Source: Rickettsia typhi (lineage in GTDB: Bacteria; Pseudomonadota; Alphaproteobacteria; Rickettsiales; UBA1997). Taken from it: DNA of 64,000 bases. Numbering within the stretch: position 1 is the first letter of the stretch; each line of letters starts with the position of its first letter. This document shows positions 3,445 through 44,841 of this stretch, piece after piece. Below the pieces are notes generated by a model that was not told the DNA's origin, searched no databases, and worked only from the letters and a program-made list of their open reading frames with translations. The stretch covers positions 119,505 through 183,504 of the forward strand of contig CAMBFC010000002.1 of the NCBI GenBank assembly GCA_945865905.1, given 5' to 3'. The position numbers and the translations under genes are program-made.

Positions 3445-4066
3445 CTTTTTTTGGTTGATCGTTATTGGTGGCACAGCTTGCGGCACCTTCGTTGGCAGCA
3501 CTAAATTTAAGTAAAGAAACGGTATATTGCAAAGCGGCTTCATTAAATTTTAATAAAAAAGCTATTTTTTTATTGCCCGATTTAAAATCACGAGGAATAT
3601 TTATTATTCTCACCCCACCAGTTTTCATACCTATAATTTTTTGCTCGAGTAAAGAGTTAGAGTTGCTGCCGATGATTAGATTTTCTTTTGTAACAAATTC
3701 AAGCGAGCTATTGCTGCCAAAGACGCGAACATCATAAGAAATTTCGGCCAAATCACCGCATTTTAATTGTTCATCTCCAGAACCTGATGCATAATCTTGA
3801 GCCGTAATAACGCTAAAGCTTTGCGATGGATCTTCTCCGGTGCCAAGCTCTTTGCCGCTCATTTGTTTAGCTCTATCAATATTAGATAAAATAAAATTAC
3901 TTTTTTCATGAATTTCGCTAAAATTTTCTTTTATATTTTGAGAAGATAGTCGGTTGCCCAAACTATCTGGATCTTGTTTATTAGAAAATAATCCAAAATA
4001 CATCACGAGCATCAGGCCAATAATTTTTACTAATGGTCTGCGCAATAGCTCCATTATTGTTTTCAT
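3434..4066 (-). CDS. Membrane-anchored FKBP-fold protein, degenerate PPIase
   Basis: N-terminal TM, then GDLAEISY...IGMKTGGVRIINIP...LQYTVSLL matching the FKBP pattern. Confidence 0.65.
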   Translation of the reverse strand: MKTIMELLRRPLVKIIGLMLVMYFGLFSNKQDPDSLGNRLSSQNIKENFSEIHEKSNFILSNIDRAKQMSGKELGTGEDPSQSFSVITAQDYASGSGDEQLKCGDLAEISYDVRVFGSNSSLEFVTKENLIIGSNSNSLLEQKIIGMKTGGVRIINIPRDFKSGNKKIAFLLKFNEAALQYTVSLLKFSAANEGAASCATNNDQPKKDAE

Positions 4067-6350: not shown

Positions 6351-7655
6351 ATGCCTCTCGACATCTTCAGCCACGCTGAACAAGAACTTCTCTCTCCTGA
6401 ACAAAAGCTCGTAATTCAAGAAATATCTCAAGGATCAAACATCTTAGTTACTGGTGGAGCCGGCACAGGAAAATCTTTTTTGCTCAATTATTTAAAACGC
6501 CATTATGGCAAGCTTGGCTTGGCGGTTACTGCCAGCACAGGAATCGCTGCGGTTAATATTGGCGGTAGCACAATTCATTCTTGGGCAGGAATCGGCCTTG
6601 CTAATCTTCCTATCGATCAAATTATTGCTAATTTATTTAGTGGCAAAATGAGCAAAATCAGGCGTCGTATCAAAGAAACGCGTATTTTAGCTATTGATGA
6701 AATATCAATGATTTCGGCTAATTTATTTGATATTCTCGATCAAGTTCTTCGTGCTGTTCGTGAAAATAATCAACCTTTTGGAGGCTTGCAAATACTGCTT
6801 TTTGGCGATTTTTTGCAACTTGCCCCTATCACCAGATATGGCGATGAAGAACAAAGTTTTTGCTTCACCTCACAAAGTTGGAAAAATCTTGATTTGCAAA
6901 CTTTTATTCTCCAAGAAATTTTTCGCCAACATGATAAAAAATTCATCAAAATTTTAAATAATTTACGCTTTGGAAATTTAGATGAAGATGATGTAGAGCA
7001 GCTAAATTTAAGGCTCAAAGCCAATGATGATAATCTGACAATTAAACCAACTATCCTCACTAGTCACAATGCTAAGGCGGCGCAAATTAACGAATTTGAA
7101 CTAAAAAAAATCCCCCGCGAAGAAAAATCTTTTGAAGCAAAATATTTTGGCGAAATAAACAAAGTTGAATTATTGCGCAAAAATTGTCTAGCGGTCGAAA
7201 GCCTAAAACTAAAGGTTGGAGCACAGGTTATGATGATAAAAAATACCTTTCAAAAAGAAGGAATTATCAATGGATCTCTTGGCGTGGTGCAAGATTTTTC
7301 ACCAAAAAAGTTTTATCCAATTGTTGAATTTTCTAATGGAAAAATTCTTACTATTGCACCAGAAGAATGGATTATTGATAGATTTGATCATGATACAAAG
7401 CAAGTTGTGACCGAGGCCGCAGCAACACAAATTCCACTGATTTTATCTTGGGCGATCACAATTCACAAATCACAGGGCCTAACATTGGATAAAATTTCTT
7501 GCGATTTATCTAATATTTTTAGCGCTGGGCAGGCCTATGTGGCGCTATCTCGCGCTAGATCGCTTGATAGTGTTTTTATTAGTTCAATTGATTTCAAAAA
7601 AATCATAACCAATCAAGATGCTATACAGTTTTATAGCCATACCAGATTAAAATAG
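6351..7655 (+). CDS. Pif1-family 5'-3' DNA helicase (SF1B)
   Basis: TGGAGTGKS, ASTGIAAVNIGGSTIHSW, IDEISM, PFGGLQILLFGDFLQL, FRQHD...LNNLRFG, QIPLILSWAITIHKSQGLTL, GQAYVALSR. Confidence 0.9.
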   Translation: MPLDIFSHAEQELLSPEQKLVIQEISQGSNILVTGGAGTGKSFLLNYLKRHYGKLGLAVTASTGIAAVNIGGSTIHSWAGIGLANLPIDQIIANLFSGKMSKIRRRIKETRILAIDEISMISANLFDILDQVLRAVRENNQPFGGLQILLFGDFLQLAPITRYGDEEQSFCFTSQSWKNLDLQTFILQEIFRQHDKKFIKILNNLRFGNLDEDDVEQLNLRLKANDDNLTIKPTILTSHNAKAAQINEFELKKIPREEKSFEAKYFGEINKVELLRKNCLAVESLKLKVGAQVMMIKNTFQKEGIINGSLGVVQDFSPKKFYPIVEFSNGKILTIAPEEWIIDRFDHDTKQVVTEAAATQIPLILSWAITIHKSQGLTLDKISCDLSNIFSAGQAYVALSRARSLDSVFISSIDFKKIITNQDAIQFYSHTRLK

Positions 7656-37013: not shown

Positions 37014-38695
37014 TTAATATTCTCAATAAAGGTTTTGGTGCTGATTTATTGGCAATCATAGCTCTTGTTGGATCAATATTAACTGCACAATATATCGCCG
37101 CCGCTTTATTGGTTTTTATGCTGCTTAGCGGCAAAGCTCTCGAAAAATACGCTTCACGCAAAGCCTCTTCTGTGCTTGAGGCTCTAGCAAAAAGGGTTCC
37201 ATCAATTGCCCATCTGCGCAACAAAAACATTATCACCGAAATCGCCATTACTAAAATTGTTATTGGCGATGAAATCGTCATCTATCCCCACGAAACCTGC
37301 CCCGTTGATGGCAGCATCATTGAAGGCAGCGGCACAATGGATGAATCTTATCTTACTGGCGAACCTTACCAAATTTTAAAAACCGTTGGATCGCTTGTGC
37401 TATCTGGCGCCATCAATGGTGATAGCGTCATCGTGATTCGCGCCGAAAAACTGGCGCAAGATTCACGCTACGCCAAAATTATGGAAGTAATGAAAGAGGC
37501 CGAAGAACGCCGCCCCCACTTGATGCGCCTCGCTGATGAAATCGGTGCAATCTTCGCTCCAATCGCATTAATTTTTGCCGCCGCCACTTGGTATTTTAGC
37601 GGCGATGTTTTGCGGTTCATCGCTGTGCTTACAGTGGCAACGCCTTGCCCGCTATTGATCGCCATTCCAATTACTGTTATTGGCGCGATTTCTTTAGCAG
37701 CAAAAAATGGTATTATTATCAAAGATCCAACCGCGCTAGAACGCCTACCCACCTGCTCCACCGCGATTTTTGATAAAACCGGCACGCTAACTTATGGCGA
37801 ACCAAAATTAACTGAAATCATTGTCGCTCAAGGCTTCGCAGCCAATGATATTTTGCAAAAAACCGCCAGCTTAGAACGCTATTCGCGCCACCCATTAGCC
37901 ATTGCAATCAAAAATGCATTAGAAGAAGAAAAGCTAGAATTATTAGAAGCCACCGAGGTATCAGAGCGCTCTGGGCAAGGCTTGCGCGGCATTGTCTCTG
38001 GCCAAGAAATAATGATCACCAGCCGCAATAAAGTTCTAAAACAAGATCCACAACTAGCCTCAATCATTGCGGTTAGCGGCTCTGGCCTAGAATGTATAAT
38101 TATGATTGATCAAAAATATGCCGCAACTTTAAGATTTCACGATGCTCCGCGAGCAGACAGCCATTCATTTATCAACCATTTAGGACCTGAGCATAATTTT
38201 AAAAAAGTGATTTTACTTTCTGGCGATAGAGAGTCAGAAGTCAATTATCTAGGGGCTTTGCTCGATATAAAACAAACTTACGCCTCGCAAAGCCCTGAAC
38301 AAAAACTTGAGTTTGTTAAAAATGAAACCGCCCTTGCCCCTACTCTATTCATGGGTGATGGCATTAATGATGCACCAGCACTAACTGCCGCAACTGTTGG
38401 CCTTGCCTTTGGGCAACATAACAACATCACCTCTGCAGCCGCTGGCGCTGTGATTCTAGAGAATACTCTAACTAAAGTTGATGAGTTAATTCATATTAGT
38501 ATTGCGATGCGAAAAATCGCCCTGCAAAGTGCTGGGGGAGGAATGCTATTAAGTTTAGTGGGTATGGGTTTCGCCGCCGCAGGAATGTTATCACCCGCTC
38601 AAGGTGCGCTGTTGCAAGAAATTATTGATGTAGTCGCAATTTTAAATGCGCTGAGGATTACTTGGAGTGTGAAGGTTGTTAGTGATGTAAAATAG
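37001..38695 (+). CDS. Heavy-metal P1B-type ATPase (P1B-5-like), apparently lacking the first TM segments
   Basis: [34 protein letters not shown] in the last TM. Confidence 0.85.
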
Positions 38696-38696
38696 G

Positions 38697-38723
38697 GGAA
38701 TGGTTGCGGGGGCTGGATTTGAA
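38697..38723. repeat. att direct repeat: copy of the tRNA-fMet 3' end
   Basis: ggaatggttgcgggggctggatttgaa, identical to 42727-42753. Confidence 0.93.
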
Positions 38724-38962: not shown

Positions 38963-39949
38963 TTAAACTATTGCAGATGGATAAGGTTTATAACTATACT
39001 GACAACCACTTTTCTTTAGGCTATCTAAAAAATCAGAAAATTTCTCATCAATATTAACTTTATTAGGTTTGATTAGTGGGATAATTTCAGCAAATTTTAC
39101 CCAGCTTGAACCAGCGATTTTGGCAAACACTGTATTGATTTTTTTTATGTCCTCACCGACCTCAATTTCCAATACTCCATGATAAAATTTTAACCAGATC
39201 CAACCATTAACATAGCTATCTCTAAAAATTCTGGAATTCTTAAAGTCCTCCATGGAAACATAATCAGCAGCGTACAAAAAAATACTGGCATTAAAAATTA
39301 TCTCAATATCACTAAAATCATCACTATTTTCTGATGACGACTTGTAATCATTATAGTCATCAGATAATAACCCAGCACTACTAATATAAGTGGCAATCTC
39401 CTCCACAAATTTCAAATCTTTACTGCTTATCTTGCTTAATGCATCTATCGTAATTAAAGAAAAAGACCCTTTATTAACTATCTCTCCCGCCATTAATTTA
39501 GCCCAAAAATCACGAACATCCTCATCTGAAATATTTTTTATTTTGTCAAGAATTGTTAAAAATTTTGTGCTGCCAAAATTAGGTATATCGCAATCCTCTT
39601 CAATTTGCTTTACAGCCTTAATTACCACACTTGTCATATTCAGGGATTGCTGCCTTCTTATGCCTTCTATTGTATGTTCTTCGATTTTGCTGCATGCATC
39701 AAATATGGATAAGCCCTGAGAAAGAGAGACTTTTAAAAAAGCCTGAATAATCTTTTTATTGCGCTCAGAATTATCCGTCTTGTTTTTAAGAAGCAAAGAT
39801 TCAGCTACGACTTCTAAATCACTTTCGCTTGGATCAATAGGGCCTCTAAGTTCCGCAGAAAATTTGCCCCATGCAATTTTTTTAATTTTATAAAATATTT
39901 TAGGAATATTTCCAATTAAATTGAAAAATTTTTTTATATATTTATTCAT
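38963..39949 (-). CDS. DUF2806-like protein
   Basis: RRQQSLNM, NISDEDVRDFWAKLMAGEIVNKGSFSLITIDAL resemble the DUF2806 core as I recall it. Confidence 0.65.
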   Translation of the reverse strand: MNKYIKKFFNLIGNIPKIFYKIKKIAWGKFSAELRGPIDPSESDLEVVAESLLLKNKTDNSERNKKIIQAFLKVSLSQGLSIFDACSKIEEHTIEGIRRQQSLNMTSVVIKAVKQIEEDCDIPNFGSTKFLTILDKIKNISDEDVRDFWAKLMAGEIVNKGSFSLITIDALSKISSKDLKFVEEIATYISSAGLLSDDYNDYKSSSENSDDFSDIEIIFNASIFLYAADYVSMEDFKNSRIFRDSYVNGWIWLKFYHGVLEIEVGEDIKKINTVFAKIAGSSWVKFAEIIPLIKPNKVNIDEKFSDFLDSLKKSGCQYSYKPYPSAIV

Positions 39950-39968
39950 AATTCGATCGCAAAAATGT

Positions 39969-40637
39969 TTAGTTACTTTTTTTCCATCTCACAAACTCAT
40001 CAGCATTTGAAAAAATCTCTTTTAATATTTCAGCAGATTTTTTTATCCCGCCCCAATATTCAAAATTAGTTTTTTCATCAGGATGCTCCTGATGATGACC
40101 TCTTATCGCCATTCCAAGAGGATAATCATCTAACTCAATTTCAATATCATTTCTTAGTCTGTAAATTAATTCCTGTATATGACTTAACTCCTTACTAGTA
40201 TATGATTTTACAACTTTTTTCTGATCTTTCTCCCTTATTTTTTCAGAAGAAAGATTTCCCTCTTTCTTCTTGGGAGTTCCTAATATCAAATATCGGGTTG
40301 ATTCGTTATATTTGGAGTATTCTTCCAAATGCTTAATTTTATCTTTTTTATAAAAATTATATTTTTCTTCATTTGGTAATCGTAGAGCAAGTTCTTTTAA
40401 ATTATGACCCCAATGTGGTATATAAGGGTTTCCGGCACTATTTTTTGGCAAATGATCATTTTTATATTCTTGATCTGTATCAATTAATAAAACTTTTAAA
40501 TATTTTTCTATTGCTTGAGCAAAATGATAGTAGGACGGTAAATGAAGATGATATTTCCACAAAACCGCTGCAGCGAGCAAATCATTGTCCGCATCAAATA
40601 TTAGAGTAAGTTTGTTAGATGGTCTATTTTTTGTCAT
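39969..40637 (-). CDS. HEPN-domain protein
   Basis: YHFAQAIEKYLK, GHNLKEL, TRY are classical HEPN signatures; an RGHHQEH (Rx5H) lies near the C-terminus. Confidence 0.7.
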   Translation of the reverse strand: MTKNRPSNKLTLIFDADNDLLAAAVLWKYHLHLPSYYHFAQAIEKYLKVLLIDTDQEYKNDHLPKNSAGNPYIPHWGHNLKELALRLPNEEKYNFYKKDKIKHLEEYSKYNESTRYLILGTPKKKEGNLSSEKIREKDQKKVVKSYTSKELSHIQELIYRLRNDIEIELDDYPLGMAIRGHHQEHPDEKTNFEYWGGIKKSAEILKEIFSNADEFVRWKKSN

Positions 40638-42459: not shown

Positions 42460-42726
42460 TAAAAATTCTTAATATTTATAGGTCATTTATACATGAAAAA
42501 TTCATACCATGCAAAATTTACTTATTTTTACAGAGTGTCATGAAGCATCTAGAATCAAGGCTTTAGAGGCTTATAATGGAGCCAAAAATGACATTTTCGT
42601 ATATGGTTTTGTACATGGAAAATTTTTGGATTCAGGCGAAATTAGCTGGATTTCTTTGGAAAGAGGAATGGCCATGAAGCCTCTCGTGCGTAGAATTATC
42701 GGACTTTATTGGATTTCTTTGAAAGT

Positions 42727-42753
42727 GGAATGGTTGCGGGGGCTGGATTTGAA
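42727..42753. repeat. att direct repeat within tRNA-fMet
   Basis: Identical to 38697-38723. Confidence 0.93.
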
Positions 42754-42807
42754 CCAACGACCTTTAGGTTATGAGCCTAACAAGCTACCGGGCTGCTCTA
42801 CCCCGCG
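42731..42807 (-). tRNA. Initiator tRNA-fMet (CAT)
   Basis: CGCGGGGTAGAGCAGCCCGGTAGC...GGCTCATAACC...GGTTCAAATCC...CAACCA; C1:A72 mismatch; encoded CCA. Confidence 0.95.
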
Positions 42808-42845
42808 ACAAAACTATAAACTATCGCAAGTTAAAGCGCAAGTTG

Positions 42846-44042
42846 TTAGTTTGCTCTAACCTCAATCACCTTATCAATAGCGCGAAGCCTCGCCAAATCT
42901 GCTTCATCGAGCAAATAATTTTCTGGCAATGCAACATTGGCTTTTTTATCACCCATCTCTACCACAAAAATTACTTTGGTTTTTTTAGCAAAACTTGCCG
43001 GCGCCAAAAGCTGTGAAAGCACGGTTTTAGAGGTTAGAATAGGATCTCGTTCTTTAACAAAAATTTGCACTTCACTAAAAATTTTTTTCGCTTCAAGCTT
43101 CTCGAGCTTTTGTTTGTAATGGTCTACGACTGGCGCGGCTTTTGCAAAATTATTGCCAGAAGAATTTTCTCCGCCCTTATTATAATTATTTTCTCCACCT
43201 TTATTATATCCCCCACCCCCGCCAAACCTGCGCTGCGGTTGTTTTTTAATATCCTCAAAAGGCTCTTTTGCCGCCTTCACATTTTTGATAAAATCAGCTA
43301 ATTTTTGCACATCACGAATCAAAATCCGCACCCCCCCATCATCTTTTTTTATCAAACACTCAATCACAACTTGGCTGCCATCAACTAATATATCGCGAGC
43401 GTTGGTAATTATAGCTTCGTCAAAAATCATCGCTTCAAAAATCCCCAGCGGATCAGAAATTGTCATATAGGCAAAACGACCGCGCGGCCCCGATCTGTGC
43501 TTGCTGCCAGCAATTACTCCCGCCATTTTTATCAGATTACTATCTTGCAATTCATCTTTCTCAATCTTCTCAGAGAAGACTACGCCTCGCTTCTTAAGCT
43601 CTAACAAGTGATCATCAAGCGGATGTTCGTTCAAAAAAAATCCAAAAGCATCGAACTCTTTTTGTAGACGCTCTTCCTTTGTCCAATCTGCAACTTTTTT
43701 AAGCTCGGGCTTAGATTTTGCTTCATCGAGAAGCTCTCCAAACATGCTCATTTGATTGCTTGAAGCTTCATCTTTTTTTTGATTTGCGGTGGCTGCAATC
43801 AGCTCAAATGATTCAAAAATTTGACGACGATTATCGGCGATAGAATCTAGCGAGCCAGATTTGGCAAGGGCTTCGATTGATTTTTTGTTTATTGCTTTTG
43901 CATCCATTCTGATTGCAAAATCATGAACATCTTTAAATTTTCCTGCTGATTTTCTTTCTGCAACTGCCGCTTCCATCATGCCCAAACCCACGGCTTTAAT
44001 GCCTCCAAGACCAAATCTGATTGCGTATTTTTCTTGCGTCAT
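42846..44042 (-). CDS. dnaE: C-terminal fragment (about 398 aa) of DNA polymerase III alpha: HhH, OB fold and CTD only
   Basis: AIRFGLGGIKAVG, INKKSIEALAKSGSLD, NQMSMFG clamp-binding motif, EFDAFGFFLNEHPL, MAGVI...FAYMTISD. No PHP or palm domain upstream. Confidence 0.85.
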   Translation of the reverse strand: MTQEKYAIRFGLGGIKAVGLGMMEAAVAERKSAGKFKDVHDFAIRMDAKAINKKSIEALAKSGSLDSIADNRRQIFESFELIAATANQKKDEASSNQMSMFGELLDEAKSKPELKKVADWTKEERLQKEFDAFGFFLNEHPLDDHLLELKKRGVVFSEKIEKDELQDSNLIKMAGVIAGSKHRSGPRGRFAYMTISDPLGIFEAMIFDEAIITNARDILVDGSQVVIECLIKKDDGGVRILIRDVQKLADFIKNVKAAKEPFEDIKKQPQRRFGGGGGYNKGGENNYNKGGENSSGNNFAKAAPVVDHYKQKLEKLEAKKIFSEVQIFVKERDPILTSKTVLSQLLAPASFAKKTKVIFVVEMGDKKANVALPENYLLDEADLARLRAIDKVIEVRAN

Positions 44043-44043
44043 T

Positions 44044-44841
44044 TTATAATACAAAAAACAAGATCACTATTCCAAGCACGATTCTGTAGATCGCAAATGG
44101 CACAAAATTATGTTTGCTAACATAACCAATGAACCATTTTATTACTAAAATTGCCGAAATAAATGCCGCGAGAAATCCCACCAAAATTAGCTCAGCACCT
44201 GAAAATGTAAGATTAGCGTAGTTTTTATAGAGATCATAAAAAGTTGCGGCAGCGATTGTTGGAATCGACAAAAAGAAAGAAAATTCTGTAGCGGTTTGAC
44301 GATTAAATTTAAGCAAAAGCCCACCAATTATGGTTGCGCCCGATCTTGATATTCCGGGAATCATTGCAATTGATTGAAAACATCCAATAGCAAAAGCCTT
44401 GAGCGGCGTAACTTCATCGATGTTTTTAATGTTGGATTTTCTTTCTTTGCGATCAACCAAAATCATCACTGCGCCACCAACAATTAACGCCCAAGCAATC
44501 ACTGCACTTGAAAATAAAACTTGTTTTATAAAACTATGAAAAGCCAATCCCAGAAAGGCCGCAGGCAAGAATGCAATCAGCAAATTCAGCAATAATTTTT
44601 GATTATTTTTTTTGTGAAAATCCACTAATAAAGAAAAAATCCGCACGCGATAAATCACCACCACCGCTAAAATAGCACCAAACTGAATGACAATTTCGAA
44701 TAAATTATTTTGAATAGAATTAAAATCAACCAGCCAAGAAAATAATAAAAGATGCGCGGTTGATGAAACTGGAAGAAACTCGGTGAGGCCTTCAACCACA
44801 CCAGAAGCCATTGCTTTTATGAGATCTGGAAAATAATGCAT
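44044..44841 (-). CDS. uppP: Undecaprenyl-diphosphatase (BacA)
   Basis: GVVEGLTEFLPVSSTAHL, IQFGAILAV, IPGISRSGATI, EFSFFLSIP. Confidence 0.97.
   Translation of the reverse strand: MHYFPDLIKAMASGVVEGLTEFLPVSSTAHLLLFSWLVDFNSIQNNLFEIVIQFGAILAVVVIYRVRIFSLLVDFHKKNNQKLLLNLLIAFLPAAFLGLAFHSFIKQVLFSSAVIAWALIVGGAVMILVDRKERKSNIKNIDEVTPLKAFAIGCFQSIAMIPGISRSGATIIGGLLLKFNRQTATEFSFFLSIPTIAAATFYDLYKNYANLTFSGAELILVGFLAAFISAILVIKWFIGYVSKHNFVPFAIYRIVLGIVILFFVL

Follow-up and report, generated by a model that had tools for sequence, protein, structure and literature searches.

The window analysed here, a stretch of 64,000 nucleotides from a reduced genome (assembly of 1.49 Mb, 98% complete), carries an islet of 4.03 kb with four co-oriented ORFs on the minus strand, which in order encode a hipB-type antitoxin, a HipA kinase toxin, a protein of the HEPN fold (P0002) and a DUF2806 protein (P0001) (Table 1). 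In relatives, too, the 30-nt repeat found at the borders of the islet corresponds to the 3′ end of the tRNA. The surrounding genes are housekeeping genes: a P-type ATPase gene adjoins one border, and the other is followed by a DnaE C-terminal fragment and BacA. The GC contents of the HEPN and DUF2806 genes are 0.30 and 0.31, respectively, and lie below those of hipA (0.385) and of the window as a whole (0.363). The annotation of the window places no integrase among the islet genes; the hotspot character of the tRNA-Met slot accounts for this, as the islet would probably be an element that has decayed or was mobilised in trans. One further ORF on the plus strand (42509-42859) was rejected as a gene, as it overlaps the tRNA and matches no family.

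Table 1. Features of the islet and its borders (positions counted from the first nucleotide of the window)
Feature	Position	Strand	Basis or remark
Distal 30-nt direct-repeat copy	38694..38723	.	Repeat search; 29/30 identical; duplicates tRNA-Met 3′ end; far islet border
DUF2806 gene (P0001), 328 aa	38963..39949	-	PF10987; very divergent, Belisama/Abi-alpha-like
HEPN-DUF2806 spacer, 19 nt	39950..39968	-	Sequence
Free-standing HEPN-fold gene (P0002), 222 aa	39969..40637	-	Fold match; rare family with C-terminal extension
hipA kinase toxin gene, 417 aa	40808..42061	-	PF07804 (HipA_C), E 2.7e-51; Couple_hipA N-terminal domain
hipB-type HTH antitoxin gene, 109 aa	42054..42383	-	HTH_3; TIGR03070 couple_hipB
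Proximal 30-nt repeat copy	42724-42753	-	Same repeat family as distal copy
tRNA-Met	42731-42807	-	ARAGORN; integration site of islet

The hipB and hipA ORFs overlap by 8 nt and form a standard type II hipB-hipA operon, which is separated from the HEPN gene by a gap of 170 nt and is a neighbour of the HEPN-DUF2806 pair rather than a part of it. A preliminary description of this DNA had reported the HEPN and DUF2806 genes as co-oriented and 19 bp apart, and both ORFs are indeed found exactly there on the minus strand. A terminator scan detected no terminator-like site between them, which together with the 19-nt gap suggests that the two genes are probably co-transcribed. The same description had read the two genes as a candidate anti-phage or toxin-antitoxin (TA) module, with HipA as a possible regulator in a four-gene circuit, and had named their domains as HEPN and DUF2806; both domain calls are right, the first by fold and the second by PF10987.

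For P0002 the profile match falls slightly short of the Pfam HEPN threshold (PF05168, 20.8 bits where 22 are required, residues 12-62). A six-frame search with the same profile gave 23.1 bits for the P0002 region once neighbouring pieces were summed, and PF05168 matches 10 of 15 members of the P0002 family, with a best E of 5.7e-8. The AlphaFold model of P0002, built on the family alignment A2, has a pLDDT of 81 and a pTM of 0.81, and when it was re-aligned with VIA-align the top 11 matches were all HEPN structures (Z 9.8-6.4, residues 5-169), among them 1ufb (Z 9.8), 2hsb (9.7), 4nqf (9.1), 1wol (8.7), SsR10 (7.8), Csm6 (7.0), AbiV (6.8) and HepT (6.4), while the next, unrelated match reached only Z 4.0. 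The Foldseek E-values of the model against the PDB are weak, and a sequence search of the PDB with the HEPN-family profile retrieved no relative. Its neighbours in the ESM atlas are PF05168 clusters, some of them with fused nucleotidyltransferases. Together the predicted structure confirms the HEPN fold of P0002, for which the Pfam evidence is weak and the fold evidence is firm.

The family of P0002 is rare and well conserved. When 5.8 billion proteins were searched by word index, only 16 clusters were returned; a GTDB-wide scan gave 3 loci and a scan of JGI metagenomes 26. The family thus comprises only ∼40 loci among the billions of proteins searched. Across the alignment A2 ∼25 residues are invariant, many of them charged, and these include Y37, H38, Q41, A42, E44, K45, Y46, L47, K48, H78, Y116, L161, R162, D170, D171, Y172, L174, G175, R179, G180 and R217, with R115 nearly invariant. 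The family shares the E-K-x-L-K, H-x-L and R-Y-P signatures with classical PF05168 proteins. Beyond the HEPN core, residues 170-222 form a family-specific tail of ∼50 amino acids with the invariant motif D-D-Y-x-L-G...R-G. Relative to classical PF05168 HEPN proteins P0002 also carries two insertions, as had been noted from its sequence, and the one at approximately residues 117-140 is common to the two closest homologues only (A2).

HEPN RNases such as AbiV have a catalytic arrangement of R and H, and the preliminary description had pointed to an Rx5H motif (RGHHQEH) in P0002. The motif is present at residues 179-185, but as an Rx4-6H catalytic site it was rejected, as conservation is limited to R179 and G180, the histidines are variable within the family, and the stretch lies outside the HEPN core (5-169). 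No conserved His is found in A2 at +5 to +7 after the conserved R115 or R162. The observation that the HEPN gene lacks an MNT partner in the islet does extend to the whole 98%-complete assembly, in which an MNT gene (PF01909) gave 0 matches, while 12 of 14 control genomes were positive. A second PF05168 gene was not found elsewhere in the host genome either.

P0001 belongs to the DUF2806 family, as it passes the gathering score of PF10987 (36.9 bits, with the cut-off at 24.5; E 4.6e-9) and its model has a family-like fold. The profile match covers residues 98-187 only, and P0001 is ∼20% identical to typical DUF2806 proteins. An exhaustive representative search gave 681 homologues at E ≤ 1e-3, of which only two fall below 1e-10, namely P0021, a fragment of 89% identity, and P0022, which is full-length and 40% identical. 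PF10987 is present in all 52 aligned relatives and Abi_alpha (PF14337) in 16 of these as well; on P0001 itself PF14337 scores 13.7 bits, below its cut-off of 29, and the TIGR03899 equivalog 31.8 bits, below its cut-off of 155.65. The P0001 model (pLDDT 77.5) has no fold counterpart in the PDB according to Foldseek, and a PDB sequence search with the DUF2806-family profile likewise found no relative. Among predicted structures the model matches a TIGR03899/DUF2806 cluster (TM 0.60/0.65, residues 60-324), a DUF2806 + Abi_alpha cluster and, with a TM of 0.39/0.54, an Abi_alpha cluster, and there is one fold match to a phage protein in BFVD (E 1.6e-8). When phage and plasmid collections were searched by tblastn, one weak match in a Sinorhizobium phage was obtained for DUF2806 and nothing for the HEPN protein.

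A check against known defence systems in PADLOC-DB 2.0, which the preliminary description had proposed, recognised neither gene: P0002 and all 15 HEPN-family members were without a match, as was P0001, and stray weak matches occurred in only 6 of the 52 DUF2806 relatives. Both genes are under purifying selection. For the HEPN gene the comparison of the window with the loci L006 and L007 gave dN/dS values of 0.31 and 0.29, respectively, and for the DUF2806 gene the comparison with L001 gave 0.49; the 3′ part of hipA compared with L007 gave 0.07.

The earlier statement that no function is known for DUF2806 no longer holds. Belisama, a single-gene DUF2806 cassette of the chromosomal integron of Vibrio cholerae with homology to Abi-alpha, protects against phage, is toxic if over-expressed, and at high MOI the culture lyses and cannot be recovered (bioRxiv 10.1101/2024.07.02.601686). 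Abi-alpha itself (ef2833 of Enterococcus faecalis prophage 6; DUF4393/PF14337, which is similar to PF10987) causes premature lysis (PMC6356687). Both are tested single-gene abortive-infection systems (bioRxiv 10.1101/2024.07.02.601686; PMC6356687). P0001 resembles Belisama in its above-threshold PF10987 match, similar size class, position as cargo of a variable slot and stand-alone occurrence in relatives; however, it is very divergent from typical family members and lies outside an integron. The likeness to Belisama is one of domain and description. With Abi-alpha, which also acts as a single gene, P0001 shares the superfamily and a resemblance in fold, but its PF14337 score is sub-threshold, its host is a Gram-negative with a reduced genome, and it is not located in a prophage.

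P0002 can be compared with known HEPN proteins in a similar manner. It has the same helical-bundle fold as the classical PF05168 proteins (TT1696, 1ufb; AF_0298, 2hsb; ST0689, 1wol) and as HepT of HepT-MntA (7bxo), but differs from these and from HEPN-MNT pairs in the lack of an MNT gene in the genome, the two insertions, the DDYxLG...RG tail and the missing Rx4-6H. As a free-standing HEPN fold it resembles Esos, a HEPN-like single-gene system of the V. cholerae integron (bioRxiv 10.1101/2024.07.02.601686), and to the HEPN RNase AbiV (9bj6, Z 6.8), which protect against phage alone or with a phage trigger. The likeness to Esos is one of description, and AbiV has the catalytic R/H arrangement, which the P0002 family is without. 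We infer that the HEPN protein is most likely an effector in stress or defence that acts by itself and either binds or cleaves its target, which would be RNA or a nucleotide ligand. Taken singly, each of the two genes is plausible as toxin or defence-type cargo.

If the HEPN and DUF2806 genes were a dedicated two-gene module, then their adjacency should be conserved across unrelated genomes. We ran the HMMs of both families over all retrieved loci. At ∼30 HEPN-family loci outside the lineage of the islet, many of them on short contigs but at least 10 with at least 2 kb of downstream sequence, no DUF2806 gene was found, and no neighbour family recurs at these loci beyond near-duplicates. The neighbours of the HEPN-family genes are mostly housekeeping genes and not defence islands, with one ApeA neighbour and one rve-type transposase gene. 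Conversely, of 30 DUF2806 loci none has a HEPN gene of the A2 family at a distance of up to 1.5 kb, and relaxing the threshold to E ≤ 1 does not change this. Elsewhere in the phylum, 27 out of 400 genomes carry DUF2806. Neither gene was found in 8 congeneric genomes, in another 28 of the family or in 24 of the order, with the exception of one weak DUF2806 match. The pair occurs side by side at no loci other than copies of the islet itself, namely L013 (99.6% DNA identity) and L001/L002 (91%). The adjacency is thus not conserved across unrelated genomes, and the neighbourhood search that was to decide on a two-gene or TA module essentially speaks against it.

Even within this narrow set the two genes part company. 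L001 and L002 have an intact DUF2806 gene of 330 aa, while the HEPN gene is cut down to its last 38 codons; this remnant is unconstrained, with 10 differences in 114 nt that are mostly non-synonymous, and is flanked on both sides by a 76-nt palindromic element, with a 3′ remnant of hipA upstream. The block of homology to the window in L001/L002 consists of DUF2806 and 130 nt upstream of it. L013 shows the reverse state, as hipB, hipA and the HEPN gene are intact and the DUF2806 gene diverges beyond window position 39531 (approximately codon 140); this break lies on a single short metagenome contig, is possibly an assembly chimera, and its tail matched nothing that was searched. Both the palindromic element of L001 and the tail of L013 are absent from the genome to which the window belongs. 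In L007 an insertion sequence cuts the HEPN gene, and its genes come after the 3′ end of hipA and HEPN codons 1-150. Finally, in L006 the homology block (87% DNA identity) is the HEPN ORF alone, with a DUF4160 gene 3 nt upstream, an rve-type transposase gene downstream and no hipA. The blocks of homology thus stop at gene borders, and each gene has been lost without the other. A poison-antidote pair is disfavoured by this, because one of the two single-loss states should then be inviable.

The nearest homologues outside the islet lead to the same slot of related genomes. L003, from a congener of the genome of the window (ArgG 91% identical), and L012 are syntenic for brkB, an acetyltransferase gene, argG, one variable gene and rhuM, and their argG genes are 82% identical at the DNA level. 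The variable gene is a HEPN homologue (P0008, 47% identity) in L003 and a DUF2806 homologue (P0022, 40%) in L012; neither slot contains a remnant of the missing partner or has room for it. The argG slot of the genome of the window holds neither a HEPN nor a DUF2806 gene. As this slot holds one or the other, both families are part of this lineage's flexible gene pool and each is able to fill a slot alone, and the common argG-rhuM location of the nearest outside homologues of the two genes could reflect a shared history.

The tRNA-Met slot in which the islet lies is variable as well. Between the same tRNA and ATPase gene G004 carries an 848-aa AAA_13 protein, a transposase fragment and a divergent hipBA, with neither HEPN nor DUF2806; in G001 the slot is taken by a tyrosine integrase together with a RepB-primase/AAA_25 element and in G003 by a 1607-aa TPS/haemagglutinin gene. 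An empty tRNA-Met/ATPase site was not found in these congeners, each of which holds other cargo. The presence of hipBA in the slot of G004 without the other two genes marks it as a unit independent of HEPN and DUF2806.

We consider it likely, with a probability of roughly 0.6, that the HEPN and DUF2806 genes are two independent single-gene cargo cassettes which lie with hipBA in a variable tRNA-Met hotspot. According to this model an islet without an integrase, of which the HEPN-DUF2806 stretch is the distal half, would have inserted at the tRNA-Met 3′ end and would stack three toxin or defence-type modules, each complete in itself (hipBA, the HEPN gene and the DUF2806 gene), the latter two being probably co-transcribed but not obligate partners. 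By analogy with its family the DUF2806 protein would most likely be an abortive-infection killer by itself, like Belisama and Abi-alpha, such that phage infection or over-production of the protein may lead to premature lysis or cell death, and the HEPN protein would most likely be a stand-alone stress or defence effector that acts on RNA or nucleotides. A number of observations run counter to independent cassettes, as the two genes are tightly spaced, have the same orientation and are both low in GC, their adjacency survives between copies with 9% DNA difference, and their nearest outside homologues occupy one slot of related genomes. In addition, the L013 break may be an assembly chimera, P0001 is far from typical DUF2806 proteins, the contexts of the HEPN family are mostly housekeeping, and PADLOC has no match. 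Part of this evidence is what would be expected of a lineage-specific functional pair, that is, a two-gene abortive-infection or TA-like unit in which, for example, a HEPN RNase is controlled by or controls an Abi-alpha-like protein, and of which the solo copies are degenerate or re-wired: the 19-nt spacing on one strand without a terminator, the common low GC, the adjacency kept in both L013 and L001/L002, and the argG-rhuM location of the closest outside homologues of both genes. Such a unit is nevertheless quite unlikely, as the families otherwise occur alone at ∼30 HEPN and 30 DUF2806 loci, both single-loss states are seen in close relatives although a poison-antidote pair should not tolerate at least one of them, the L006 block is the HEPN ORF alone and the argG slot has no partner remnant, and Belisama and Abi-alpha act as single genes. 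It is decidedly improbable that the two proteins form a working abortive-infection unit of this reduced-genome lineage in which one senses or restrains the other and the argG-rhuM alternation marks the break-up of an ancestral pair; in a weaker form of that reading, the HEPN family alone may be an undescribed single-gene defence or toxin family.

Extending the unit to hipB-hipA-HEPN-DUF2806, with phosphorylation by HipA gating the HEPN protein as the preliminary description had allowed, finds no comparative support. All four genes point the same way within one islet and keep their order in L013, but hipBA is a complete, overlapping TA pair by itself with a 170-nt gap to the HEPN gene, the GC of hipA is unlike that of the HEPN and DUF2806 genes, HEPN homologues of 81% (L006) and 47% (L003) identity have no hipA neighbour, and neither has the DUF2806 homologue of L012, while G004 has hipBA without either gene; the probability of such a circuit is close to negligible. 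Cargo without any role in defence, whether as passengers left from an old integrative element and now in decay or, for the HEPN protein, as a non-toxic accessory that binds nucleotides or RNA, would account for the lost integrase and for the repeated truncation of both genes in relatives, and would also agree with the fairly high dN/dS of DUF2806 (0.49), the missing Rx4-6H and mostly housekeeping surroundings of the HEPN family, the small host genome (1.49 Mb) and the lack of PADLOC matches. We regard this as unlikely, as neither ORF is disrupted and the dN/dS values of both are well under 1, the HEPN family keeps its ∼25 invariant residues, DUF2806 has tested defence members, and both genes are located in variable hotspots typical of defence cargo.

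With independent cassettes as the preferred reading, a candidate new two-gene system is removed and stacked cargo genes take its place. The tRNA-Met slot of a small-genome genus appears to gather interchangeable single-gene and TA cargo, namely hipBA, an AAA_13 ATPase, a HEPN gene and a Belisama-like gene, and Belisama-type DUF2806 genes, in a very divergent form, reach even reduced genomes of 1.5 Mb. The fresh element of this locus is the solo HEPN family, which is rare, well conserved and devoid of the usual catalytic motif, and in which a HEPN fold without Rx4-6H may still serve as an effector.

The genus has a variable hotspot at the tRNA-Met slot: in three congener genomes this slot holds an 848-aa AAA_13 protein together with a transposase fragment and a divergent hipBA (G004, locus L096), a tyrosine integrase with a RepB-primase/AAA_25 element (G001, L098), or a 1607-aa TPS/filamentous-haemagglutinin gene (G003, L097). 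In L001, a 91%-identical relative, a 559-aa ORF with no Pfam match is cargo in this same slot. In the window, the ORF adjoining the tRNA covers no more of DNA polymerase III alpha than its C-terminal HHH_6 and OB parts. The 116-aa ORF on the other strand was considered as a gene and is probably spurious, as it has no family match and overlaps the tRNA gene.

Coordinates of features at the tRNA-Met slot and in related loci
Feature	Location	Strand	Remark
402-aa ORF, DNA polymerase III alpha part	window 42846-44054	-	directly adjoins tRNA-Met
116-aa ORF	window 42509-42859	+	opposite strand, overlapping tRNA-Met gene
559-aa ORF	L001:3417-5096	-	between tRNA-Met and hipA remnant
Palindromic element	L001:5640-5860 and 6995-7075		~76 nt, MITE- or REP-like
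HEPN homologue	L003:6001-6594		argG-rhuM slot
DUF2806 homologue	L012:2944-3903		argG-rhuM slot
GC-rich hairpin repeats	L012:2780-2840 and 3880-3930		
DUF4160 gene	L006:151-603		150 aa

A second slot, the argG/rhuM(/Fic) interval, contains a homologue of either HEPN or DUF2806, never both, in two syntenic relatives (L003 and L012), and the argG locus of the window's own genome (L071) carries neither gene. Similar hairpin repeats lie on each side of the DUF2806 homologue in L012, and together they look like a cassette-like arrangement. In L001 the palindromic element occurs on both sides of the HEPN remnant and DUF2806; it is missing from both the window and its own genome. Finally, in L006 the DUF4160 gene ends 3 nt before an 81%-identical HEPN homologue, and the HEPN cassette therefore has a different tight upstream neighbour at this locus.
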